Shown here piece by piece: positions 2,893 to 49,575 of a stretch of 64,000 nt of DNA. Within the stretch, counting starts at the first letter, position 1. Each line of letters opens with the position of its first letter. The stretch is from Candidatus Uhrbacteria bacterium CG10_big_fil_rev_8_21_14_0_10_48_11. GTDB lineage: Bacteria > Patescibacteriota > Patescibacteriia > GWA2-46-9. The notes below the pieces were generated by a model. That model ran no database searches and was not told the origin of the DNA. It saw only the letters and a program-made list of their open reading frames with translations. Made by a program: the position numbers and the translations under genes. The stretch is from contig PFET01000012.1 in NCBI GenBank assembly GCA_002793855.1, positions 6,222-70,221 on the forward strand, in the 5' to 3' direction.

Positions 2893-3906
2893 TTAAATTG
2901 TTTTACCTACCAATTCTGCCATTTCTACCAGTCTATTGGCATAGCCCCACTCGTTGTCATACCAAGCCATTAGTTTCACAAGGTCACCATCAACGACTTT
3001 TGTTAGGCCAAGATCAACTATGGCAGAGTGGCTGTTGCCAATAATATCGTGGGATACTAACGGTTCGTCAGTAACGTCAAGAATCCCCTTCCAGCGCTTT
3101 TCCGCGGCCGCTTTTCGAAAGAGTTCATTAACGGCTTCAACCGTGGTTGGTTTTTTTACCACAAAGGTAAAGTCGGTAAGTGAGCCAACTGGGGTAGGAA
3201 CCCGAACCGAAAGTCCGTCAAATTTGTCGGTCAGTTCAGGAATTGTCTTGGTGGTAGCCACGGCAGCCCCCGTTGTTGTCGGCACGATATTGACAGCGGC
3301 AGCGCGTGCACGGCGCAAATCTTTATGCAGTGGTGGCGTCGGCCCATCAACCAAATTTTGTTCTGCAGTGTAGGAGTGAATAGTGGTGATAGCGCCCTTG
3401 CTAATACCCAACGCTTCTTCGAGGACCGCGGTTACCGGACCAACGCAGTTTGTTGTACAGGAGGCGTTCGAAACCATGGCGTCACTATCGTACTGACCAT
3501 GATTAACACCAAGCAGATAAGTTTTTGTTTCGCCGCCTTTGGTTGGCGCCGAGACAACGACACGCTTTGCGCCAGCTGTCAGGTGCGCGTTTGCAGCGTC
3601 ATCCCGAGTAAAACGACCGGTGCACTCTAGCACCACATCAACTTCATGCTTTCCCCATGGCAAAGTTGCCGGATCTTTCTCGGCAAAAACCTGGTACGAA
3701 ATACCGTCGACAATCAACTCGTGTTCGCTGTGGGTGATAGAGAAGGGCGCTCTTCCGTACACTGAGTCGTATTTTAAGAGTTGCGCCAAGGTTTCTGTGT
3801 CAGTTAAATCGTTGATAGCGACAATCTTAATAGCTGGATTGTTGAGCGCGATTTTAAATGCCGCCCGCCCGATTCTACCAAAACCGTTAATGGCAACCTT
3901 CAACAT
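2893..3906 (-). CDS. gap: Glyceraldehyde-3-phosphate dehydrogenase
   Basis: NGFGRIGR Rossmann motif, ASCTTNC active-site motif, 337 aa. Confidence 0.95.
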   Translation of the reverse strand: MLKVAINGFGRIGRAAFKIALNNPAIKIVAINDLTDTETLAQLLKYDSVYGRAPFSITHSEHELIVDGISYQVFAEKDPATLPWGKHEVDVVLECTGRFTRDDAANAHLTAGAKRVVVSAPTKGGETKTYLLGVNHGQYDSDAMVSNASCTTNCVGPVTAVLEEALGISKGAITTIHSYTAEQNLVDGPTPPLHKDLRRARAAAVNIVPTTTGAAVATTKTIPELTDKFDGLSVRVPTPVGSLTDFTFVVKKPTTVEAVNELFRKAAAEKRWKGILDVTDEPLVSHDIIGNSHSAIVDLGLTKVVDGDLVKLMAWYDNEWGYANRLVEMAELVGKTI

Positions 3907-3925
3907 AACGTTAACCTTGGGGTGA

Positions 3926-4525
3926 TTACTGTCCTATTTCGTAGCGCGTGAAGCGCTTGATTTGTACATTCTCCCCCACTTTTGCCGTTATAGCAACCAG
4001 AAGGTCTTTTATTGTCTGCGATTCTTCTTTGATAGAGGACTGAGCAAGAAGCGCTTCTGCTTCTACAAACTTAGCAAAACTTCCCTCTAAAATCTTATCA
4101 ATAATTGTGGCATCTTTGCCGGCCAACTTACCCTCCTCCTCAAGACGCTCTTTTGCCAAACTAAGTTCTTTTGCTTTCACCTCTTCGGGAATGTCCTCGA
4201 CTGATAGGTAACGTGGATTTGTTGCGGCTACCTGCAAAGCAATGTCATGTACAAACGACTGAAAGTCTTCGTTGCGAGCGACAAAGTCGGTTTCGCAAGC
4301 AACTTCAATCAACACGCCAACACGTCCGTTCCCGTGAACGTAGGCGTGTACGATGCCCTCACTGGTCTCTCTGTCTTGCTTCTTCAATGCTTTGGCTTGT
4401 CCTCGTTTCTTCAAAAGCTCAAGCGCTTTTGCCTGGTCACCACCAGCTTCTTCGAGTGCTTTATGAATGTCGGAAATGCCCGCACCGGTTTCTCGGCGCA
4501 AGGCAACAATGGTTTCTTTTGTCAT
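3926..4525 (-). CDS. tsf: Elongation factor Ts (short form)
   Basis: N-terminal UBA-like LRxxTGAGxxDxKKAL motif, 199 aa, directly downstream of rpsB. Confidence 0.88.
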   Translation of the reverse strand: MTKETIVALRRETGAGISDIHKALEEAGGDQAKALELLKKRGQAKALKKQDRETSEGIVHAYVHGNGRVGVLIEVACETDFVARNEDFQSFVHDIALQVAATNPRYLSVEDIPEEVKAKELSLAKERLEEEGKLAGKDATIIDKILEGSFAKFVEAEALLAQSSIKEESQTIKDLLVAITAKVGENVQIKRFTRYEIGQ

Positions 4526-12000: not shown

Positions 12001-12879
12001 CTAAAAACGAATCTGGTCGGCTTGTCCTCGCATGAAGTTGTCAGCGTTGACGATGTCGACATTCGGCACTACTAAAACATCAGTCACTCCTAAAATGGTA
12101 TTGTAGAGATTTATAGTAACGGGGCGTTGCTCCCCCGCCTTTAATTGGTCAAGAGCAAGGGCTTGAGCAGCTACAGCACGTGACCCCTGCAGAAGTACCA
12201 CCGTAAAACCGGTCGACCAAAATCCATTAGCGCTCTCGTTTGCTACGGTAAATGACACCTGCCCGGGCAAACTCAAACCGGCACTATCAACCCCCCGACC
12301 AGAGGTAAATGAAACACCGCTAACTACAAAGTGCGGCTTCAAGGCGTTGAAAGCGTCAGGAATATGCAATCGCTGCCACTTGATGTTGTTTATACGAATC
12401 GGCAAATTCGCACTCGGTGAAGTAGCGGCACCAACGCTAACCGCAAATCGCTCCTCGTTGTTTAATACCAAAACCGTATCACTACCATTACTACCATCGC
12501 CAACCTGATACGTTACCCACGCTACCCAATTTGGATTTGGATTAAAAAATTTAACCAACGCGTCATATTTGCCATTGCGACCACTGCCTGCCAGTACCGT
12601 GCCGGTTGAAGTACTGATGGGATGCGGTGAAATAATACGATGCCAGTTCGCCGTATCAACACTGGTTGAGAGCGCGTACAGCACCTGTTGGTCTGCGACG
12701 CGAGAAAATACGTACAAATTAAGGAGCTGATAACCAGAATACAACAACACAACCGCTTCAACCGCCACCACAATACCGATGACCATAAGGCGAAATCGAC
12801 TATGATTCGTTATCCAAAATTGAGCCCAACGAAACCACGAGTCGTTCAGTACCGGGTTTACGTTTTCAGTGTCACGCAT
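12001..12879 (-). CDS. Hypothetical protein with N-terminal TM anchor and extracytoplasmic domain
   Basis: Single N-terminal hydrophobic helix (MVIGIVVAVEAVVLLY); no recognisable motif. Confidence 0.45.
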   Translation of the reverse strand: MRDTENVNPVLNDSWFRWAQFWITNHSRFRLMVIGIVVAVEAVVLLYSGYQLLNLYVFSRVADQQVLYALSTSVDTANWHRIISPHPISTSTGTVLAGSGRNGKYDALVKFFNPNPNWVAWVTYQVGDGSNGSDTVLVLNNEERFAVSVGAATSPSANLPIRINNIKWQRLHIPDAFNALKPHFVVSGVSFTSGRGVDSAGLSLPGQVSFTVANESANGFWSTGFTVVLLQGSRAVAAQALALDQLKAGEQRPVTINLYNTILGVTDVLVVPNVDIVNADNFMRGQADQIRF

Positions 12880-12938
12880 ATAGATTTTAGTGTAGCATAT
12901 CTGTAATAAAACCGTAGCGTGGCAAACCCTAAAAGACG

Positions 12939-17312: not shown

Positions 17313-17341
17313 TTTGTCTCAGCCGGCTGATTTGCTACAAT
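17313..17341 (+). promoter_or_regulatory. Promoter TTTGTC-17-TACAAT giving an essentially leaderless mRNA for the 17350 gene
   Basis: The -10 ends 8 nt before the ATG. Confidence 0.4.
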
Positions 17342-17349
17342 AGCAGTCT

Positions 17350-17940
17350 ATGGCGAGGCAATCACAAAAAAAAGTTATCGGACTTACTGGTCCAAAAGGC
17401 AGCGGCAAAGGGACCATTGCGAACTATCTTGCCGAACACTACGGCGCAACGGTTATCGCCGTCTCTACAATACTTAACGAAATATTGACACTCATTGGCG
17501 TTAAACGTGAGCGAGTCAATCAAATCGCTTTAGCGCAGGCTCTTCGCGCCACCTTTGGCAAAGAGGCAATGGGTCACGCTGTCGATGCTGCCCTTAATCG
17601 ACTGCCACCCACAAAGCAACGTCTAGTAGTTGTTGACGGCGTCCGTCCGCTTGCCGATTGGGATCCGTGGCGAAACAACAAAAACGCAACTCTTGTCGCC
17701 GTTACCGCTAGCGCAGAAATTCGTTACCAGCGTATTCGTAAACGCGGTAAGACAGCAGAAGAAAAGACCCTTACCCTTAAAAGGTTCAGGGCTGAAGAAA
17801 AAATGCCGACCGAGACAAAGACAATTGGCGAAACTAGTCGTCACGCGCGATTCACCATTGACACCAGCGACTCAAAAGCAGCTGTTTATCGTCAGGTAGA
17901 TTATGTCGCCGATAAACTCAACCTTAAACGCAAGCGGTAA
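17350..17940 (+). CDS. P-loop kinase, dephospho-CoA-kinase/NMP-kinase-like
   Basis: GLTGPKGSGKGT Walker A motif; VVDGV...SAEIRYQRIRKR resembles the CoaE lid region; 196 aa. Confidence 0.45.
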   Translation: MARQSQKKVIGLTGPKGSGKGTIANYLAEHYGATVIAVSTILNEILTLIGVKRERVNQIALAQALRATFGKEAMGHAVDAALNRLPPTKQRLVVVDGVRPLADWDPWRNNKNATLVAVTASAEIRYQRIRKRGKTAEEKTLTLKRFRAEEKMPTETKTIGETSRHARFTIDTSDSKAAVYRQVDYVADKLNLKRKR

Positions 17941-33495: not shown

Positions 33496-33807
33496 TCATG
33501 TCGCAGAATTTCGTTTACGTTTTGCACTGCTACGTGGTCGTTCGGCCTTTCGCCCAATAAAAAAGGTTGCCACTCTGGTCACCCCTTCAACGAGCAGCTG
33601 CAATGAGGTGGATGCGTGCTCTGCTTTTTCGCTTACCAATGAAATAAAGCGATCAATTACTGCCAACCGCTCACGAAGTTCGGTAAACGTTCGATGGGCA
33701 TCACGAAGTAACATCACGACGTAGTACAGCATCCAGGCAATAAATACCGTTAGCCAAAGCGTGCAGAACGCAAGAATGAAATTAAGAATATCGTGGCTTG
33801 TATACAT
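33496..33807 (-). CDS. Hypothetical small membrane protein (103 aa)
   Basis: One TM segment plus a basic C-terminal tail. Confidence 0.35.
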   Translation of the reverse strand: MYTSHDILNFILAFCTLWLTVFIAWMLYYVVMLLRDAHRTFTELRERLAVIDRFISLVSEKAEHASTSLQLLVEGVTRVATFFIGRKAERPRSSAKRKRNSAT

Positions 33808-37996: not shown

Positions 37997-40954
37997 TTAG
38001 GCTTGCGAGAACGGACATATAGCTTTAAAGTCGCAATGTCCGCAGGTGTGCTTTGACGGTTTGGGCGGGAACTTGCCGTTATGAATAGTGGCTATGGTCT
38101 CGGTCACTTTTTGCTCAAGTTTATTTAAATCCGCTTCACTCCCTTTGAATGAAAGCGGTTTATTCTCGTTAAGATAATAAAACGTCAGCTGCAACGGTTC
38201 ATCGTGCCAAACTTTCTTAGCGGCGAGCTGGTAGATGAGAAGCTGATCTTTATCGACCTCAGCAAGGCTTGCCGGCACCCTTCCTGTTTTGTAGTCAATA
38301 ATTTCTATGCCACCCTCCACTGCATCAATGCGATCTATTTTTCCGCGTAACGTATAGGGGCCAATTTTTAACACAAAACCTTTTTCTACTGCTGTAGTGT
38401 CAGGCCAGTTACCATCGTGCAGTTTATAAAATGTTTTAAGCGACTGCTTGCCTTTCGCATAATACTCGTCATGCATTTTTCTGCTTGGGTACCATTCGTC
38501 TATCCACGCTTCATCAAAAAAGGCGATAAGATCCGTTAGCGTCGGCATCCCCTCTTGTTTCACCACTTGCTTTTCGTCGGAGAACAACCCTTCTTGCTTC
38601 TTTGCTTTGGCAGCAATGACCCGTTCAAAAAAACGTTCAAGGGCAAGGTGCATCGACTGACCAAAGCTGAAGGTGTGCCGTCCCCAGACCGGTACTTTCA
38701 AAACGTGAGCGTAGCGATACTGTAGCGGGCAGGTGGTAAATGCTTTTAGCGCCGTGTAGCTAAAGTGTTCTGGAATTGGTTCGGGAAATACCACCGGCCA
38801 CATTTCCGGCGCCGTTGCCATCGGAAAGGCGCGGGCACCGTCAGAGCTTAGCGGTGGAGAAAGCGGGATACCGAGCTCTACTAAAAAACGAGAAAGTTTT
38901 TTCTTGCGTACCCCGCCGTAATCTTCCGCTGAGGTAAAATAGAGTCCTTGTTTGGCACGGGTCATCGCCACGTAAAAAAGCCGTCGCTCTTCTTCGAGAT
39001 GAATGTCACCTTCTGGCAAAATTTCTTTCAATAACTCATCAGGCAACACAATGGGTTCGCTTCTCTCGGTCGACGGAAACCTGCGATCGACCAGCCCAAC
39101 AATAAACACATAAGGAAACTCGAGGCCTTTAGCCGCGTGCACGGTCATTAGCTTGACGACATCGGGACCTAGCTCTGGGTCAACAGTAATTGCTCCTGTT
39201 TCTCCTGACTCCATCTCAAAGGCAATCGTCTCCAAAAAATCTCGCAGGCGCGGGTCGTCCTGAGTTACCTCCCACTGCCGAATGCGCTGATAAAACTGGT
39301 TGAGATAACTAAAAGCAACCCGAGCATACTCATCTCCCGCTGCCTCAACCATTTTGGTATAGCCGATATCGGTAAGCGCACTCACTAACAATTCGCTAGG
39401 CGGACGGGAACTAGCCGCTTCGGTGTGTCGCCTGAGCTGCGCAAGCAGCTCATCAATGCTTTTCAACGTCGCCGTTGTCAGGTTCGGTACGACACGAGCA
39501 GAAGTGAGCGCCTGATAAAGCGATAGCGATTTCCGTTTTGCATAATGGCTAAGCTGAATAGCATCCTCTCCAGAAACATTCACTGCTGGGATGCTCAGTA
39601 CCCGCCACAGACTTGGACTCTCGTGGTAGTTATCAAGCAGCCGAAAGTATGACAACACATCAACAATGACCGGCGTTCGATAGAGTCCCCGATTGGAAAA
39701 TGAATGATGCGGAATCCCAGCTCGAACTAGTGCGGAGCTAAACTCGTTAGCCTGATCGTTCGACCGCGAGAGTATGGCAATATCTCCCCAATTCACTTTC
39801 TCTTTCTTGCGAAGCTCGGCAATCTTTTTAACAATGAGCGCCTGCTCATCAGCCAAACTAACGCCATTAAAATGCATTATTTCCCCTTTTGTTTTATTGG
39901 CCGCCCGCAACTTTTTACTTAGCGTCATACCATTAAGCAGGCTAAGCTGATCCTCTAATCTATTTGGATTATTTTGACAGATAAACGTATACGCAAGATC
40001 AAGAATTGATTGAGCAGAACGATAGTTTGTTACCAAAACAACGCTTTTTGCTTTTGGAAAATCTTTTTTGAATTGTAAAATATTACTCATTGACGCTCCG
40101 CGGAAGCGATAAATTGCTTGGTCATCGTCCCCCACAACGGTCAAGTTAGCTCGCTCGCCCGCTAACAATTTAACGAGTTCATACTGCGCCGAGTTAGTGT
40201 CTTGAAACTCATCAACTAATAAATAGCGGAACTGTCGGCGGTAGGTTTCGAGAGTGTCAGGGTGTGCTCTAAATAATCGCAGGGCGTAAACAATGAGATC
40301 GCCAAAATCAAGGGCGCTATGCTCCAGCAAGAGCTGCTGGTACGTATGGTAGGCGCCTGCCACTTCTTCAAGCCGCGCAGATTCGTCTTCTTCGGTATTT
40401 TTTTTGCGCTTGGCCTTTTTTGTGCGCTCGGTATCCTCAGCTAAGCGTTTCTCCTCCGCAAAAGACAGGTACGCTTCCGGATAAATCTCTTCATCTTTGG
40501 CGCGAGAGAAATGACGAACGAGCGCGTGTATAAATTTTGTCGGGTTGCCTAACGGTCGGTAGTAGTTAAGCGTAAAGCGATCCAAATTTTTTCGAACAAG
40601 CAGCCACTGCTCAGTTTCGGTAAGCACTTTGAAATCATACGGTACACCAATAGCTAAAGCGTGTCGCTCGAGTATGCGCTGACAAAAAGAGTGGAAGGTC
40701 GATACCCAAAGATCGGTATAGCCATAGGGAAGGAGTTTATCAACGCGCTCTTCTATTTCTCCTGCAGCTTTATCGGTAAAAGTCAGAGCCAAAATTTCGT
40801 CCGGCTTAGCCAATTTTTTATTAATGAGCCAGGCAAGGCGCTTGGTAATAACGGTGGTCTTCCCAGTGCCCGCGCCGGCAACAATCAGAAGTGGTCCGTC
40901 TCCGTGCGTTACCGCTTGCTCCTGTTCGGTATTTAAATCCTTTAATAACTCCAT
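37997..40954 (-). CDS. UvrD/PcrA-family helicase fused to a C-terminal PD-(D/E)XK nuclease carrying a Cys cluster (AddA/AddB-like in one chain)
   Basis: AGAGTGKT Walker A and UvrD motifs. The C-terminus has GKIDRIDAVEGGIEIIDYKTG and CPLQY...CGHCDFKAIC (RecB/Cas4-like Fe-S nuclease). Confidence 0.8.
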   Translation of the reverse strand: MELLKDLNTEQEQAVTHGDGPLLIVAGAGTGKTTVITKRLAWLINKKLAKPDEILALTFTDKAAGEIEERVDKLLPYGYTDLWVSTFHSFCQRILERHALAIGVPYDFKVLTETEQWLLVRKNLDRFTLNYYRPLGNPTKFIHALVRHFSRAKDEEIYPEAYLSFAEEKRLAEDTERTKKAKRKKNTEEDESARLEEVAGAYHTYQQLLLEHSALDFGDLIVYALRLFRAHPDTLETYRRQFRYLLVDEFQDTNSAQYELVKLLAGERANLTVVGDDDQAIYRFRGASMSNILQFKKDFPKAKSVVLVTNYRSAQSILDLAYTFICQNNPNRLEDQLSLLNGMTLSKKLRAANKTKGEIMHFNGVSLADEQALIVKKIAELRKKEKVNWGDIAILSRSNDQANEFSSALVRAGIPHHSFSNRGLYRTPVIVDVLSYFRLLDNYHESPSLWRVLSIPAVNVSGEDAIQLSHYAKRKSLSLYQALTSARVVPNLTTATLKSIDELLAQLRRHTEAASSRPPSELLVSALTDIGYTKMVEAAGDEYARVAFSYLNQFYQRIRQWEVTQDDPRLRDFLETIAFEMESGETGAITVDPELGPDVVKLMTVHAAKGLEFPYVFIVGLVDRRFPSTERSEPIVLPDELLKEILPEGDIHLEEERRLFYVAMTRAKQGLYFTSAEDYGGVRKKKLSRFLVELGIPLSPPLSSDGARAFPMATAPEMWPVVFPEPIPEHFSYTALKAFTTCPLQYRYAHVLKVPVWGRHTFSFGQSMHLALERFFERVIAAKAKKQEGLFSDEKQVVKQEGMPTLTDLIAFFDEAWIDEWYPSRKMHDEYYAKGKQSLKTFYKLHDGNWPDTTAVEKGFVLKIGPYTLRGKIDRIDAVEGGIEIIDYKTGRVPASLAEVDKDQLLIYQLAAKKVWHDEPLQLTFYYLNENKPLSFKGSEADLNKLEQKVTETIATIHNGKFPPKPSKHTCGHCDFKAICPFSQA

Positions 40955-40969
40955 ATTTTAATTATAGCA
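40955..40969 (-). promoter_or_regulatory. Extended -10 promoter (TGcTATAAT) 6 nt upstream of the helicase ATG, giving a leaderless mRNA
   Basis: Consensus TATAAT with an upstream TG; no -35 element. Confidence 0.45.
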
Positions 40970-40974
40970 CGCTC

Positions 40975-41013
40975 AAAAAAGGAGCCCGGCGTCGCTGGTA
41001 GCGAACGCCGGGC
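40975..41013 (-). terminator. Strong intrinsic terminator (GCCCGGCG..CGCCGGGC with nested TCGC/GCGA, then T6) ending the 41000-41560 transcript
   Basis: On the minus strand the hairpin is followed by CTTTTTTG. Confidence 0.7.
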
Positions 41014-41222
41014 ACTGTGTGCGGATACAACCGTAACATCGCCTAGTCGTAGGCGATAAATTTGATCCGCGCGATTATCTGGGAAAGACGAGCAATAGTC
41101 GCTATGCCCCGTGTTCCCTGCCGCTTACGCAGCTCCTCCTCAAGCTGCAGCACAGCAGAACGAAGCGCATGCGGCTAAAAACCTGCTCTTTCGACGTGGT
41201 GTGTACCCTCCTTGACTACCCC

Positions 41223-41366
41223 CTAGTCGGAGTAGTCATCGGGATCCATGCTTTGGTAATAATCCTCCTTTGCCTTTCTGTCCTCGCACGGGAGGACAAA
41301 ATGCCACGGGCGGATCTCTTCTCGAACTCCCTCCGCCACCTCTAACTCTTCAGTTTCCATTCGCAT
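41223..41366 (-). CDS. Candidate small acidic protein, 47 aa (MRMETEELEVAEGVREEIRPWHFVLPCEDRKAKEDYYQSMDPDDYSD)
   Basis: AGGAGAAGG Shine-Dalgarno sequence 6 nt upstream, and a TTGACG-16-TATGAT promoter at 41531..41558. It is followed by about 210 nt of GC-rich structured RNA and the 40975..41013 terminator. Confidence 0.3.
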   Translation of the reverse strand: MRMETEELEVAEGVREEIRPWHFVLPCEDRKAKEDYYQSMDPDDYSD

Positions 41367-41561
41367 ATCCTTCTCCTATGACAAACAACCCCGACGTATG
41401 CCGGGGTGGTTTGGTCTCTATGAATGAACTAGGACCTCAAACTACCCCGTCGTCGACGACGACAATACCACCGACAAGCTTAATGCCGGTAAAATTAAAA
41501 TAGTTTGAGGTAATGCATTGCATTGCTAAAATCATAGCACCAATATAAAACCCGTCAAGGG

Positions 41562-42761
41562 CTATTCGTCGTAGAGACGAATGAGCTCGTTGTACTTGTT
41601 GATTCTCTCGTTTCTCGGAGCCCCAATTTTAACCGCATCCGCGCTGCCGGCCTTTGCTAGCTCGATAATAAAGGGATCATCCGTCTCTCCTGAACGATGA
41701 GAGACAATAGTGGTGAGTTTATGCTGGCGAGCGATTTCTAGCGCCCTACACGACTCACTTACCGTTCCTACCTGATTCGGCTTAATGATAACCCCGCTAA
41801 TGCAAGCACGCTCGGCAAACCCCTCAATACGCTTTGGGTTTGTTACCGTAAGATCGTCACCAACAACCGAAAGATTAGGCAATGCCTCCAAAAGAGCGGC
41901 AAACCCCTCAGCGTCATCTTCAGCAAAAGGATCCTCGATACTAATAAGCCTAGGGATTTCGGTAGTAAATTTCTTGTACACTTCAACCATTTCCCCCGCA
42001 TTTATTGTTTTGCCACCAAATCGGTAACTCCCGTCATGATAAAAACTAGAAGCTGCGGCATCAAGCGCCAAGGATAAGCGATCCGAAAGCGACGACTCTT
42101 CTATGAGCGAGCTAAGTATTTTTAATGGTTCTTCATTGTTTTTAAAATCTACACAGTAGCCAGCTTCGTCACCAACCGGCAGTGCTTCCAGCTTACGGGA
42201 AGTGCGGAGCTGTTCCCCCAAAGTTCGGTAGAGAGCCACCAGTTCTTGTGTTAGTTCGGCGTAGGATATTTTTGGAGCAGCCACGAGCATATACTCTTGA
42301 ATAGCAAGATTGTTAGCAGCATGCTCGCCACCATTAATGACATTACTGTAAATGCGCGGACGAACGGCACCACTAACGTGGGCAAAAAACTCTTCGTGCA
42401 GTACCTCTGAAAGTTGCCTTGACTGTTCGGCGGCTAACGCGCGAGAGAGGGCAACAGAAATCGCAAGCGTAATGTTGCCGCCAAGTATAGCCTTGGTATC
42501 TGTTGTATCAATCCCTAGCAGTAGCTCGTCAACTTCATGAACGGAGCCGTACTCTCTGCCGAGCATTGCCTTTCGAAGCGCCTCAATTGACTGTTCGGCT
42601 TCATGGTACGAAAACACTTTTGCCTCTGCACTACCACGACTTTTACCTGAGGGCACCGCAGCACGATGAGAAACACGAGCGCCGTCGAGTGCTACAACTT
42701 CGATGGTCGGCTCACCACGAGAGTCAAAAATTTTTCTGACGCGTAGATCGTCTAACTTCAT
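41562..42761 (-). CDS. eno: Enolase
   Basis: SHRSGETDD, IIKPNQVGT and NGGEHA motifs; 399 aa. Confidence 0.95.
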   Translation of the reverse strand: MKLDDLRVRKIFDSRGEPTIEVVALDGARVSHRAAVPSGKSRGSAEAKVFSYHEAEQSIEALRKAMLGREYGSVHEVDELLLGIDTTDTKAILGGNITLAISVALSRALAAEQSRQLSEVLHEEFFAHVSGAVRPRIYSNVINGGEHAANNLAIQEYMLVAAPKISYAELTQELVALYRTLGEQLRTSRKLEALPVGDEAGYCVDFKNNEEPLKILSSLIEESSLSDRLSLALDAAASSFYHDGSYRFGGKTINAGEMVEVYKKFTTEIPRLISIEDPFAEDDAEGFAALLEALPNLSVVGDDLTVTNPKRIEGFAERACISGVIIKPNQVGTVSESCRALEIARQHKLTTIVSHRSGETDDPFIIELAKAGSADAVKIGAPRNERINKYNELIRLYDE

Positions 42762-43774
42762 TGCTGTGGTACTACATGCTCCGGCTTACCTGCTAAAAAA
42801 GCACGAAGATTGCCATAGGTAACGTCCATAATTCTTTCCATTGCCTCTTGGCTGTTAAACGCATTGTGTGGACTTACCAGAACGTTTGGCATTGTAATAA
42901 GCACCCTATTTTCTAGCGCGAGTTTTACTGCTTCTGGATCAGCGTCAGCGTGGCGCAAGAGCGCCGTTTCGTCACCGATTTCGCCTTCCCCTTCAAGCAC
43001 GTCAAGCGCCGCGCCGGCAACCGTACCGTCTTGTAATGCCGTTACTAACGCATCGGTTTCGATAAGCCCACCGCGCGCTGTGTTTACAATAAATACCCCG
43101 CGTTTAATCTGCTTGAGATTTTTTGCATTCAACAAATGATGCGTCGCCTCACTGTACGGTGCATGCAAGGTGACTACATCAGAGTTAGCCAAAAGTTCGT
43201 CCAGACTAACATAGCGGTAACCAAGCTCCGCTGCCGTTTCTTCTTTCGGATAAGGGTCGTAAGCTAGTACCCGCATATCGAACCCGAGAGCTATGTTGAC
43301 GGATACCATCCCGATACGACCGGTACCAATAATACCAATTGTTTTTCCACTAAGATCAGTACCGCGTAGTTCTTCGGGAGAAAATGGACCAGATTCTTTA
43401 ATACGATCTAGCGCCGTGTATACTTTGCGGGTAAGACTAAGCAGTAATCCAAACGCATACTCGGCAACCGTATGGTCGCCGTACCCAGGGACATAAGAAA
43501 CAATAATTCCGCGCTCTTTACATGCCGCAAGCGCCAGATGATCAAAACCCGTTGAACGGGTCGAAATGAACTTGAGCGCCGGCATCTTAAGCAACTCTTC
43601 CTTGGTCACTTTGGAACTAACAAAAACAGATAGCACCTCTAGCTTTGCCTTGTCTTCGTCGCTGATTTCGGCGAGTGATTTTTTTGCCAAAAACAGCTCC
43701 TCGTCAGGAAATTCTTTTCTAATCCGTTCTTCTTCCCACCCCTCGAGATCGATAAATCCAACAGTGTGCGCCAT
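42758..43774 (-). CDS. D-isomer-specific 2-hydroxyacid (D-lactate) dehydrogenase
   Basis: GIIGTGRIG NAD-binding motif and a catalytic R..E..H triad; 338 aa. Confidence 0.8.
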   Translation of the reverse strand: MAHTVGFIDLEGWEEERIRKEFPDEELFLAKKSLAEISDEDKAKLEVLSVFVSSKVTKEELLKMPALKFISTRSTGFDHLALAACKERGIIVSYVPGYGDHTVAEYAFGLLLSLTRKVYTALDRIKESGPFSPEELRGTDLSGKTIGIIGTGRIGMVSVNIALGFDMRVLAYDPYPKEETAAELGYRYVSLDELLANSDVVTLHAPYSEATHHLLNAKNLKQIKRGVFIVNTARGGLIETDALVTALQDGTVAGAALDVLEGEGEIGDETALLRHADADPEAVKLALENRVLITMPNVLVSPHNAFNSQEAMERIMDVTYGNLRAFLAGKPEHVVPQQ

Positions 43775-43780
43775 ACGAAT

Positions 43781-46222
43781 TTACCGTTTCTTTTTACTGA
43801 CCTTCTCAACCGTCTTCTTTCCGAAAGCGAGCAACATAGGAATGACGGCGTCAGGATTAAGTGAGATACTCTCAATACCTTTACTGATTAAGAACTTGCC
43901 AAAGTCTAGATAGTCAGACGGCGCCTGCCCACAAATACCGATATACTTTTTGCGTCGAAGACAAGCGGCAATTGCCATAGCAACCATTTGCTTCAAGGCT
44001 GGCTCGCGCTCGTTAGCGACGTGCGCAACGATACCGCTATCCCTATCAAGACCAAGCGTGAGCTGCGTAAGGTCATTCGAACCAATTGACATACCATCAA
44101 ACACATCCAGAAAGGCATCTGCCTCCATAACGTTTGAAGGTATTTCGCACATAACGTATACCTTCAATTTTTTATCATTGGCGCGATCCAGCTTGTGTTG
44201 TGCCATTACCGCCCGAACCTTACGGCCCTCATCTGGTGTTCGACAAAACGGCACCATCGGCACAACATTAACCATCCCTAGTTTGGTTCGGACACGGCGC
44301 ATTGCCTCGCACTCTAAGCCAAATGCTTTCGTAAACTTTTCGTCGTAGTAGCGTGACGCACCGCGCCACCCAAGCATCGGGTTTTCTTCTACTGGCTCGT
44401 ACCGCTCGCCACCAAGCAATGTTCGATACTCGTTCGTTTTGAAATCAGAAAAACGAATAATGACATCGTGCGGCCAAAAGGTCGCCGCAATTTTTGCGAT
44501 GCCTTCAGTAAGCTTCGCGACGTAGTATTCTCGCTTGTCGCTGTACCCAACGGTTAACTGGTCAATGGCCGCCACTAATTTTTCTGTCTTTTTGTTGTGT
44601 TGCGCCTCTTTTTGTAATTTCGCGTAGTCGATAAGCGCGTTTGGATGAACACCAACGTGTCCGGCAATAATAAACTCAAGCCGTCCAAGACCGACACCCT
44701 CCACCGGAAGCGCATGTAGACGAAACACGTCATCTGGCGAACCAATGTTTACCATAATGTGCGTCTTCATCTTTGGTAGCTTAGGCAAAGAATGACGTTT
44801 GACCACAAACGGTACCTTACCTGCATAGATGTTACCGACTTCTCCTGATGAGCAATCGATGGTAATGAGCTGTCCATTTTTAAGCACTGTTGTTGCTTGA
44901 CTTGTACCGACAATACACGGAATACCAAGTTCTCTTGATACAATTGCCGCATGGCTTGTCCTGCCACCCTTGTCCGTGATAATCGCCGAAGCTATTTTCA
45001 TAATTGGCTCCCAGTCTGGATCGGTTATTTGCGTAACCAGCACTTCTCCTTTTTTGAAACTTCCCATCTGTGAGGCAGATTGAATAGCACGAACCTTCCC
45101 GCTACCAATCGTAGACCAAACGGCAACTCCGCTAAGTAGCGTCTTTCCTTGACCCTTAAGCGCGTACTCGGTGTAGACCGTTTTGTCCGTTAGCGCCTGC
45201 ACGGTTTCTGGTCTGGCCTGAACAATATAGAGCGTGTTGGTCTTGCCGTCTTTTGCCCATTCGATATCCATTGGCTGGTAGTGCCCATGTTTTTTTGAAA
45301 AGTAGCGCTCTATCTCTACGCACCATCGAGCAAGCGTTGTCACTTCTTTGTCGGTTAGGCAGTAAACCGTTTCGTCCTCTTTTTTTACCGAAACCTGCCG
45401 AATGCCAGTTTTTGCATAAATCATTTTTTGCTTTTTCTTACCTAGCGTCCGTTCGATAATTGCCTGCTTGCCAGCCGCCAACGTCGGTTTAAAAACAATA
45501 AACTCATCAGGAATAACTTTACCCTGCACAATCATCTCGCCCAAACCGTACGAACCGGTAACCACGACAACATTTGAAAAGCCGGTTTCGGTGTGTACGG
45601 TAAACACCACCCCGCTTGTCGCGAGGTCAGAACGAACCATAATTTGAACACCAACCGAGAGAGCGACCTTCGTGTGAGAAAAGCCCTTATCGGCCCGGTA
45701 CGAAATGGCACGATCGGTAAAGAGAGAAGCAAAGCAGCGACGAGTCGCGTCAAGAACTGCCTCAGCCCCTTCGATATTAAGAAACGTTTCTTGCTGTCCG
45801 GCAAATGATGCCCCTGGCAAATCCTCTGCCGTCGCGGACGAGCGAACCGCGACCCCAATGCGCTTCCCAAAACGTTTTTCAAGCTCCCCGTAAGAGCGCA
45901 CTATTTCCCTCTCCATGTCCGCAGGAAATGCTGTTTTCAAAAAAAGGTCCCGTACCTGCTTTCCTCGACGTTGTAAATCAGCAACCTTTTTTGTTTTCAA
46001 CACCTTTAAAATACTGGCAATTTTCTTATCAATGGCGTTGTGCGTCACAAACTCTCGGTAGGCATGCGCAGTAATCGCATAACCGTCCGGTACGTTAATA
46101 CCTTTCCGGACGAGTACCTGAAAAAGCTCCCCTAGCGCCGCGTTCTTTCCGCCAACCAGCGGCACGTCTTCAATGTGTAGTTCCCGAAAAGGGATAGTCA
46201 GGCGGTCGGTCTTCTTTGCCAT
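43781..46222 (-). CDS. ppsA: Phosphoenolpyruvate synthase / PEP-utilising dikinase
   Basis: N-terminal LVGGKNAALGE ATP-grasp domain, central phospho-His domain and C-terminal PEP-utilising TIM barrel; 813 aa. Confidence 0.8.
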   Translation of the reverse strand: MAKKTDRLTIPFRELHIEDVPLVGGKNAALGELFQVLVRKGINVPDGYAITAHAYREFVTHNAIDKKIASILKVLKTKKVADLQRRGKQVRDLFLKTAFPADMEREIVRSYGELEKRFGKRIGVAVRSSATAEDLPGASFAGQQETFLNIEGAEAVLDATRRCFASLFTDRAISYRADKGFSHTKVALSVGVQIMVRSDLATSGVVFTVHTETGFSNVVVVTGSYGLGEMIVQGKVIPDEFIVFKPTLAAGKQAIIERTLGKKKQKMIYAKTGIRQVSVKKEDETVYCLTDKEVTTLARWCVEIERYFSKKHGHYQPMDIEWAKDGKTNTLYIVQARPETVQALTDKTVYTEYALKGQGKTLLSGVAVWSTIGSGKVRAIQSASQMGSFKKGEVLVTQITDPDWEPIMKIASAIITDKGGRTSHAAIVSRELGIPCIVGTSQATTVLKNGQLITIDCSSGEVGNIYAGKVPFVVKRHSLPKLPKMKTHIMVNIGSPDDVFRLHALPVEGVGLGRLEFIIAGHVGVHPNALIDYAKLQKEAQHNKKTEKLVAAIDQLTVGYSDKREYYVAKLTEGIAKIAATFWPHDVIIRFSDFKTNEYRTLLGGERYEPVEENPMLGWRGASRYYDEKFTKAFGLECEAMRRVRTKLGMVNVVPMVPFCRTPDEGRKVRAVMAQHKLDRANDKKLKVYVMCEIPSNVMEADAFLDVFDGMSIGSNDLTQLTLGLDRDSGIVAHVANEREPALKQMVAMAIAACLRRKKYIGICGQAPSDYLDFGKFLISKGIESISLNPDAVIPMLLAFGKKTVEKVSKKKR

Positions 46223-49263: not shown

Positions 49264-49293
49264 GTCGAAGTGGTTTTCGCCAAAAAACTAGCT

Positions 49294-49575
49294 TTAAAGG
49301 ACAGCGTCCTTCGCGGCTTTAGCGACGCGGAACTTGACTACCGTCTTTGCCGGAATCTGAATTTCCTCGCCGGTTGCCGGGTTGCGCCCCATACGGGCGT
49401 TCCGGTGAACCTTTACCAGCTTCCCGATGCCAGGCACCAGGAACTCTCCGTTGACCTTAACTTCGCGGTACGCGAGGTCAGTGTAGGCCTCTACGAACGC
49501 AACGACCTCTTTCTTGCTCATACCGGTCTTCTCGGCGAGCGCCTGGAGGACTTGCGATTTTGTCATCTTCGCCAT
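49294..49575 (-). CDS. hup: DNA-binding protein HU
   Basis: 93 aa; the RNPxTG arm motif (GRNPATGEEIQIPA). Confidence 0.92.
   Translation of the reverse strand: MAKMTKSQVLQALAEKTGMSKKEVVAFVEAYTDLAYREVKVNGEFLVPGIGKLVKVHRNARMGRNPATGEEIQIPAKTVVKFRVAKAAKDAVL

Follow-up and report, generated by a model that had tools for sequence, protein, structure and literature searches.

In a 64-kb stretch of DNA (1-64000, hereafter the window) from the genome of a Candidatus Uhrbacteria bacterium (Patescibacteria/candidate phyla radiation, CPR), derived from a groundwater-type metagenome, the enolase gene eno and a helicase gene are separated by 607 nt on the minus strand, extending from the eno stop codon at 41562 to the helicase ATG at 40954. 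The latter gene encodes a UvrD/PcrA-type helicase of 985 aa with a PD-(D/E)XK nuclease domain at its C-terminus, the protein being identical to one listed at NCBI for Candidatus Uhrbacteria bacterium CG10_big_fil_rev. The gap between the two genes contains no housekeeping RNA and no novel large RNA, and it is not an RNA gene. In our assessment, the balance tips slightly in favor of an unannotated, lineage-specific small-gene operon which occupies a variable slot just upstream of the helicase-nuclease gene and carries an attenuator-like leaderless leader. This cassette is a variant of a known regulatory type, leader-peptide attenuation, combined with an uncharacterized micro-protein family. Judged from the sequence, its anatomy is well supported, and the attenuation mechanism that we reasoned from it has about equal chances of being right or wrong. 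The original prediction for this gap had listed a promoter, a small acidic open reading frame (ORF) led by a Shine-Dalgarno (SD) sequence, about 210 nt of structured RNA and a terminator, and had considered either a dual-function small RNA (sRNA) or a small-protein locus. All of the listed features were found on the minus strand at the places given for them, inside the 607 nt. The structured and conserved RNA is at the opposite end, in the 5′ leader that had been left undescribed; an internal terminator (41415-41379) and a micro-ORF upstream of it had been overlooked. The gap had also been called GC-rich, which holds only in a mild form (GC content 0.51 overall with a peak of 0.56, compared to 0.44-0.53 nearby).

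The predicted leaderless micro-ORF and its counterparts in related genomes

Right after the eno stop codon, where the original prediction had placed it, the sigma-70-type promoter TTGACG-16-TATGAT was confirmed (41558-41531, minus strand). It begins 4 nt past the stop codon, has an extended -10 element (TGc) and matches the consensus at 10 of 12 positions. Seven nucleotides past the -10 box, an ATG opens a micro-ORF of 28 codons plus stop (MQCITSNYFNFTGIKLVGGIVVVDDGVV; 41437-41523, minus strand), which represents the first 87 nt of the predicted mRNA and encodes a hydrophobic peptide of 28 aa. The same spacing between -10 box and ATG, likewise without an SD sequence, is present at the helicase gene and at several other operon-first genes, and an SD-like motif was found at only about 7 of 48 large genes of the window. 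The mRNA is thus most naturally read as leaderless, and these features suggest that leaderless mRNAs are widespread in this Uhrbacteria genome. The motif TGCTAnAnT is located 6-10 nt upstream of the ATG at several operon-first genes (40954-40969, 2805-2830, 12879-12900, and 17325-17350). Promoter-like sites by themselves are not enriched in the stretch (2 observed versus 1.7 expected). On the plus strand at 41505-41532, opposite the beginning of the micro-ORF, there is a promoter-like site of a type occurring at chance frequency (TTGAGG-16-TAAAAT, 9 of 12 positions). The promoter region also resembles 31 nt of another Uhrbacteria locus, L012; this match lies inside the ppsA coding sequence and was discarded as chance.

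The 607-nt region was found in seven contigs from five samples and is 100% identical in all of them. The population is present in the samples SRR6240789, JGI 3300004208 and 3300025142, and ERZ27293412 and ERZ27293414. No helicase homologs between 62 and 100% identity were present in the protein collection, and the comparison set consisted of nine relatives whose helicases are 57-62% identical. Seven comparable loci were read side by side, namely those of the window and of the relatives L088, L090, L091, L094, L095, and L096. The -35/16-nt/-10 layout following the upstream gene recurs in all six relatives, and the seven loci share the same order of elements. Past the upstream gene and its promoter, an ATG 6-10 nt downstream of the -10 box starts a hydrophobic ORF of 26-36 codons, whose stop codon precedes a GC-rich, U-tailed hairpin by 14-23 nt. 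Next come an SD sequence and between one and three small ORFs, and then a strong terminator ahead of the helicase promoter. One of the relatives, L095, shows the same enolase-cassette-helicase synteny as the window.

Only frame 0 of the micro-ORF region is open in 7/7 loci, with stop codons in frames 1 and 2 nearly everywhere. The encoded peptides have a grand average of hydropathy of 0.76-1.24 and resemble each other more than expected (z = 5, mean pairwise score above all 500 shuffles), with a loose K-x-V...G pattern. No residue is shared across the loci in codons 3-12. The window peptide contains a single Cys and no uninterrupted hydrophobic stretch of ≥18 residues. None of the peptides matched the NCBIfam leader-peptide models, and a likeness to SpoVM, SHP pheromones, and ErmBL was seen by eye only and is not claimed.

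The predicted attenuator-like switch

Compared to shuffled sequences, the minus strand of the 607 nt folds strongly (-236 kcal/mol, z = -7.45; plus strand -199.9 kcal/mol, z = -5.3). Resolved by part, the z-scores were -6.5 for the 5′ leader, -4.3 for a nested hairpin near the 3′ end, and -6.1 for the cassette terminator; they were weaker for the 47-aa ORF (-2.1) and for most of the tail behind it (-1.8), the coding background being -0.07 ± 0.84. In the minimum free energy (MFE) fold of the window leader, codons 5-8 of the micro-ORF (segment 1, ACCUCAAACUA; 41501-41511, minus strand) pair with its last codons and stop (UAGUUUGAGGU) to give a closed structure. The 3′ strand of this helix, termed P1, is part of segment 2 (ACGGGGUAGUUUGAGGUCC; 41432-41450, minus strand). 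This segment comprises the final codons of the micro-ORF together with its UGA stop and, being complementary to the 5′ arm of the terminator, would also serve as antiterminator strand. Segments 3 and 4 form an internal intrinsic terminator (GACCAAACCACCCCGGC-AUAC-GUCGGGGUUGUUUGUC; 41379-41415, minus strand), whose stem was detected at 41407-41388 in a terminator scan and is followed by a U-rich tail. Since this terminator ends 1 nt before the SD sequence of the 47-aa ORF and leaves no room for another promoter, the 47-aa gene would be transcribed by read-through only.

An analogous start-to-stop helix built from different sequences occurs in the MFE folds of L090, L091, L094, and L095, and the leaders of L088 and L096 close differently. 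The folding z-scores of the ORF region in the seven loci were -5.2, -2.5, -4.6, -2.3, -7.4, -1.5, and -0.75, five of them below -2. The hairpin of the internal terminator, about 50 nt in length, was the only part of the window region alignable with relatives at the nucleotide level by blastn and tblastx of the intergenic regions. Its arm sequence is common to L088, L090, L091, and L095, where the loop-side part of the stem varies yet still pairs (as seen by eye, not formally counted), and L094 and L096 have a plainer hairpin with GC stem and U-run at the same place.

Segment 2 and the 5′ arm of the terminator form a duplex of -20.2 kcal/mol, compared to -12.8 ± 2.6 kcal/mol in shuffles. In 7/7 loci, the best duplex between leader and terminator 5′ arm involves the micro-ORF stop codon together with the final few codons. 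The fraction of shuffles with an equally good antiterminator duplex was 0.01, 0, 0.10, 0.03, 0, 0.16, and 0.13 for the individual loci. The transcripts were also folded in the state before the 3′ arm of the terminator is made, either with or without masking of the first 30 nt. With masking, the antiterminator was the MFE structure in 7/7 loci. Without masking, the start-to-stop helix P1 won in three loci, and in the window the competing states lie within a few kcal/mol of each other.

These properties are compatible with the following mechanism. Transcription from its own promoter would start a leaderless mRNA, in which the beginning of the micro-ORF pairs with its end (1:2). With no ribosome present, or with a ribosome at the stop codon, segment 3 would be free to pair with segment 4, resulting in termination and a transcript of about 145 nt. 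A ribosome that is held up within the first third of the micro-ORF would cover segment 1 and thereby permit 2:3 pairing and read-through into the acidic-protein gene. The 5′ module would in this way operate as a ribosome-dependent transcription attenuator, for which the general translation status or a stalling agent seems a likelier signal than a single amino acid.

Several observations weigh against this mechanism or limit what the comparison can tell. The transcript, its leaderless translation, and its termination are predictions. The Val- and Ile-rich codons of the micro-ORF are codons 14-28, and a ribosome stalled there would cover segment 2. A Val-sensing attenuator does not fit because of this position, and there is no run of regulatory codons at the place where stalling would free the antiterminator. 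The downstream genes are orphan genes for acidic proteins rather than biosynthetic ones, which leaves no physiological rationale. The antiterminator z-scores are weak in three loci, and in four loci the antiterminator wins already without masking. The pairwise similarity of frame 2 is as high as that of frame 0 (23.5 versus 23.3); since frame 2 contains stop codons, the conservation of the micro-ORF may partly be at the RNA level (AAGnnnGTCG). The terminator-arm sequence is of a generic type present in many unrelated metagenome contigs, as found in a scan with the pattern AAACMACCCCG-N4-24-CGRRGTKGT; among the matches listed, none had a homolog of the helicase, enolase, or TatD. Only seven comparable loci were available, and these are too diverged to align. 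RNAalifold gave no consensus pairs for a MAFFT alignment of the seven leaders, and formal covariation is therefore not claimed; the support that these sequences offer for an attenuator is positional and statistical. The seven contigs carrying the region are identical, and for this reason they provide no polymorphism for a test of selection. Finally, the cassette is absent in one relative (L093) and differs in two others (L097 and L098).

A part of these data could also be explained if the hydrophobic 28-aa peptide were itself the functional product, expressed from a short mRNA that is stabilized by the helix and ends at a leaky terminator, with constitutive partial read-through setting the stoichiometry of the acidic protein without regulation. 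This is rather improbable in our view, although the hydrophobic character and the K-x-V...G pattern recur in seven loci, only one frame is open, the leaderless layout equals that of bona fide genes of this genome, and a terminator follows directly. It leaves unexplained why the 3′ end and stop of the ORF are complementary to the 5′ arm of the terminator at the same position in 7/7 loci, and the peptides, which vary from 26 to 36 aa, are only weakly similar and belong to no known family.

A slightly smaller chance is given to a ligand- or protein-binding riboregulator built on the platform of P1, antiterminator, and terminator, in which the micro-ORF would be incidental or secondary. Such an element would account for the strong structure of the leader with its closing helix and an internal hairpin with AAG in the loop, for nucleotide conservation that covers third codon positions (ACCGGCA...AAGnnnGTCGG), and for the equal similarity score of a non-coding frame. 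Moreover, the 3′ strand of P1 overlaps the antiterminator, as is usual for OFF-riboswitches. However, no Rfam family was detected even at E = 10, no junction or loop nucleotides are conserved in an alignable manner, and the internal branching varies among the loci. The presence of an ATG at the predicted start site followed by an open frame in 7/7 loci would also be an unlikely coincidence.

The proposed attenuator shares basic features with enterobacterial attenuators such as those of trpL, ilvL/ivbL, hisL, and pheM. Both have a promoter-proximal short ORF and an intrinsic terminator before the next gene. Their four segments can pair as 1:2 helix, 2:3 antiterminator, or 3:4 terminator, the antiterminator being mutually exclusive with the terminator as well as with the pairing of the upstream segment, and in both the leader stop codon is located at segment 2. 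In contrast to the SD-led enterobacterial leaders, the cassette mRNA is predicted to be leaderless. It also lacks regulatory codons for a controlled amino acid, a run of which is placed in the enterobacterial systems such that segment 2 is freed, and instead of the biosynthetic enzymes of a pathway, tiny acidic proteins are encoded downstream. The host is an auxotrophic CPR bacterium, unlike the hosts of the enterobacterial attenuators.

Sensing of stalling in general rather than of the supply of one amino acid is a feature of the erm, cat, and ABC-F leaders, which are ribosome-stalling attenuators upstream of antibiotic-resistance genes. They similarly combine a short upstream ORF with a terminator or antiterminator. 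The genes downstream in the cassette, however, resemble no known resistance determinant, and no known arrest motif was identified in it. With respect to the leaderless aspect, the closest described analog is the mycobacterial Cys "ribulon", in which leaderless short ORFs with polycysteine tracts unmask a sequestered ribosome-binding site (Canestrari et al., bioRxiv 10.1101/834739). There too, the transcript is polycistronic and begins with a leaderless short ORF that had escaped annotation, and the position of the ribosome is proposed to remodel the downstream RNA and to control the next gene (10.1101/834739). The cassette differs from these attenuators as it has no Cys tract, its SD sequence AGGAGAAGG lies outside the hairpins, and its platform is an intrinsic terminator.

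Regulatory RNAs and micro-proteins of CPR bacteria/Patescibacteria are essentially unknown, because annotation in these organisms is almost wholly based on homology. If the attenuator reading is correct, the cassette would exemplify ribosome-mediated attenuation of a leaderless mRNA for the CPR radiation, and it would imply that conditional control of tiny accessory genes is retained in reduced CPR genomes. To our knowledge, no such case has been described for CPR bacteria, with the proviso that the literature was not searched systematically.

The acidic protein family and the decayed downstream gene

Immediately downstream of the internal terminator, the SD sequence AGGAGAAGG followed by a 47-aa acidic ORF (41366-41223, minus strand) was found as originally described. 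The strong SD sequence is exceptional in a genome that rarely uses one. Counterparts of 38-75 aa are located at the same position in five relatives (L088, L091, L095, L096, and L097), which supports the suggested small-protein locus. They end with FGD or FAD and the window protein with YSD. Among 1517 six-frame ORFs of ≥30 aa from the window and 10 relatives, only six end with [FY][GAS]D, and all six are in this position of the cassette. The six family members have isoelectric points (pI) of 4.05-4.93 (4.31 for the window ORF), and their pairwise identity is only 13-23%. The family was defined by a length of 38-75 aa, a pI below 5, the C-terminal motif [FY][GAS]D, and a gene position in the slot directly ahead of the UvrD/PD-(D/E)XK helicase gene and on the same strand as the latter, all of which apply to the window ORF. 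On this comparative evidence, the 47-aa ORF is regarded as a real gene of a fast-evolving acidic family.

Word-indexed searches with the 47-aa protein and then with the six-member alignment returned the query proteins only. A profile search against 1.84 billion representatives recovered four of the input proteins and otherwise only a weak match to a 218-aa protein (E = 7e-5, four stretches). The small ORFs of the slot gave no match above the curated thresholds of Pfam, PHROGs, PADLOC, and NCBIfam. An AlphaFold2 model of the 47-aa protein had a pLDDT of 60.6 and showed one short helix with the rest as coil. This is consistent with a disordered acidic protein, and the pLDDT was too low for a fold search with the model. 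The family thus escapes both word and profile searches and is visible only by synteny and its C-terminal motif, which calls for caution in small-ORF annotation.

A conserved aromatic/acidic C-terminus, encoded near the genes for the helicase and DciA, brings to mind a tail for partner binding. Functional tails of this type are present in the C-terminal tip of SSB and in gp2.5 of phage T7. The 47-aa family, being acidic and probably disordered, resembles these by analogy only, as it has no OB fold and no sequence similarity and ends in D-x-[FY]-[GAS]-D rather than D-D-D-I-P-F. As a long shot, the acidic micro-proteins might be dedicated partners or regulators of the neighboring UvrD/PD-(D/E)XK helicase-nuclease or of DciA-dependent replication, maybe as mimics of DNA or of the SSB tail. 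Their synthesis would then be controlled by a novel class of attenuator with a leaderless peptide, signaling the translational status in ultra-small CPR bacteria.

Behind the 47-aa ORF, the original prediction had placed about 210 nt of structured RNA. This was not supported, given a similarity at the protein level. When read in the frame of a 36-codon ORF starting with GTG, the tail can be matched to the 82-aa product of ORF2 of L095, at residues 27-71 (Smith-Waterman score 65, z = 7.6; none of 300 shuffles reached this score). BLASTP gave E = 9e-5 over 31 aa spanning an in-frame stop codon, or approximately 3e-3 when adjusted for 33 frame-by-protein comparisons. The homologous segment, a remnant of a second small gene behind the micro-ORF, extends over 41043-41183 (minus strand), with the in-frame TAG at 41175-41177. 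The N-terminal approximately 26 codons are missing, and there is no room for them. Upstream, an orphan SD sequence (AAGGAGGG; 41207-41214, minus strand) has no ATG, GTG, or TTG at a working distance and an ACG 9 nt later, as would fit the beginning of a gene that has decayed. The GTG ORF (41153-41043), which lacks an SD sequence, survives in the remnant and might conceivably still yield a product of 36 aa. Read most simply, the tail would mostly be a decayed third small gene of the cassette, followed by one hairpin and the operon terminator; with most of the stretch being a decayed gene, it was removed from the list of candidate novel structured RNAs. A match of the sequences MRFVLL and MKRFLL to the start of L095 ORF2 was rejected, as its position is at odds with the significant alignment.

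Two structured elements at the end of the cassette were present as originally predicted. One is a nested hairpin at about 41076-41020 (minus strand), in which GCGGAU...AUCCGC encloses AUCGCCUA...UAGGCGAU (TCGCCTA...TAGGCGA in the DNA) and which extends into the terminal part of the remnant ORF; the loci of the relatives showed no counterpart. The other is the long cassette terminator (41013-40975, minus strand) with a GC-rich stem of 13 bp containing one bulge and followed by UCCUUUUUU (U6), as derived from the MFE fold. It was not listed by a simple terminator scan, which is attributed to the bulge. In L088, L091, L094, L095, L096, and L097, the helicase promoter is likewise preceded by a GC-rich terminator at this place, and the cassette terminator appears to insulate the helicase gene, which is predicted to be leaderless. 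Six nucleotides upstream of the helicase ATG, the predicted extended -10 promoter TGCTATAAT was confirmed at 40969-40961 (the promoter with start codon covering 40954-40969, minus strand), and the relatives have the same layout.

The earlier failure to match the region to RNase P, tmRNA, SRP, or 6S RNA agrees with the results obtained with Rfam and ARAGORN. Rfam 15 at gathering thresholds gave no match in the whole 64-kb window, nor did searches of the relatives L088, L090, and L091, and at E ≤ 10 the best sub-threshold hits in 40800-41700 scored at chance level (10-18 bits versus thresholds of 40-60). ARAGORN found no tRNA and no tmRNA in the region. The entire window lacks tRNA genes as well as any Rfam family.

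The suggestion that the region, and chiefly its last approximately 210 nt, is a gene for a structured non-coding or dual-function sRNA is consequently given very little credence. The folding of the minus strand and the nested hairpin with a strong terminator at the 3′ end would agree with it. In addition, short transcripts derived from attenuators are able to act in trans in other bacteria, as reported for rnTrpL (PMC6614838). On the other side are the missing Rfam matches and the protein-level homology of the tail, which folds near background except for one hairpin. The nucleotide sequence of the tail is conserved in none of the relatives according to blastn and tblastx, and a repeat search revealed no second copy of the region within the window. 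A type I toxin-antitoxin or other addiction module, in which the hydrophobic micropeptide would act as toxin and either the acidic protein or an antisense RNA as antidote, is hardly credible. In its favor are a small hydrophobic peptide, a structured mRNA with a start region sequestered by pairing, the variable gene content of the slot, and the weak plus-strand site at 41505-41532. Against it, the window peptide lacks a hydrophobic helix of 18-20 residues, has K, D, and G among its residues and seems prone to beta structure; there were no PADLOC, Pfam, or NCBIfam matches and no similarity to phage or plasmid records; and the plus-strand site matches at 9 of 12 positions and is of a type occurring at chance frequency in the stretch.

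The variable slot and its surroundings

The relatives share a backbone of genes for MetRS, CvpA, TatD, the variable slot, helicase, DciA, a membrane protein, PheS, and PheT, and the window is organized alike, including the DciA-like gene. The size of the slot ranges from 48 nt in L093, where it is empty, to 500-1650 nt elsewhere, with differing sets of small ORFs. As the tatD-helicase gap of L093 comprises only 48 nt (1307-1356), the whole cassette is dispensable. A blastn search of phage and plasmid records gave no similarity to the region.

In the window and in L095, a block of ppsA, a 2-hydroxyacid dehydrogenase gene, and the enolase gene (42758-46222 in the window) is located between tatD and the slot. 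The corresponding place in the other close relatives L088, L090, and L094 lacks this block. In L012, the same three genes are followed by a different neighbor. In an enolase-based scan of GTDB genomes, the nearest enolase was 51% identical and not syntenic.

Individual loci contain further elements in or near the slot. In L090, a G-poor, C/A-rich tract of about 150-200 nt (CCACCCAACAAAAAC..., CAACCAACTCAAACC...) is located between tatD and the cassette promoter at approximately 2520-2680 and is preceded by its own promoter-like site (TTGACA...TAAACT). In L091, the ORF ending with FAD is followed at approximately 3800-3960 by a first terminator and then by a long inverted repeat (ATCCCGTTAGAAAT...ATTTCTAACGGGAT) around two GC hairpins, for which the window has no counterpart. 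The same slot of L098 (1281-1445) contains a promoter, a hairpin, an SD sequence with a 3-codon ORF (MGP), a U-rich stretch, and another SD sequence with an unrelated 87-aa ORF; these elements may form a regulatory leader of an analogous kind whose content differs. Two other long gaps in the window, 49293-49575 and 33496-33806 (both minus strand), contain ordinary small genes, one for an HU-like DNA-binding protein and one for a small hydrophobic protein, and no RNA elements.

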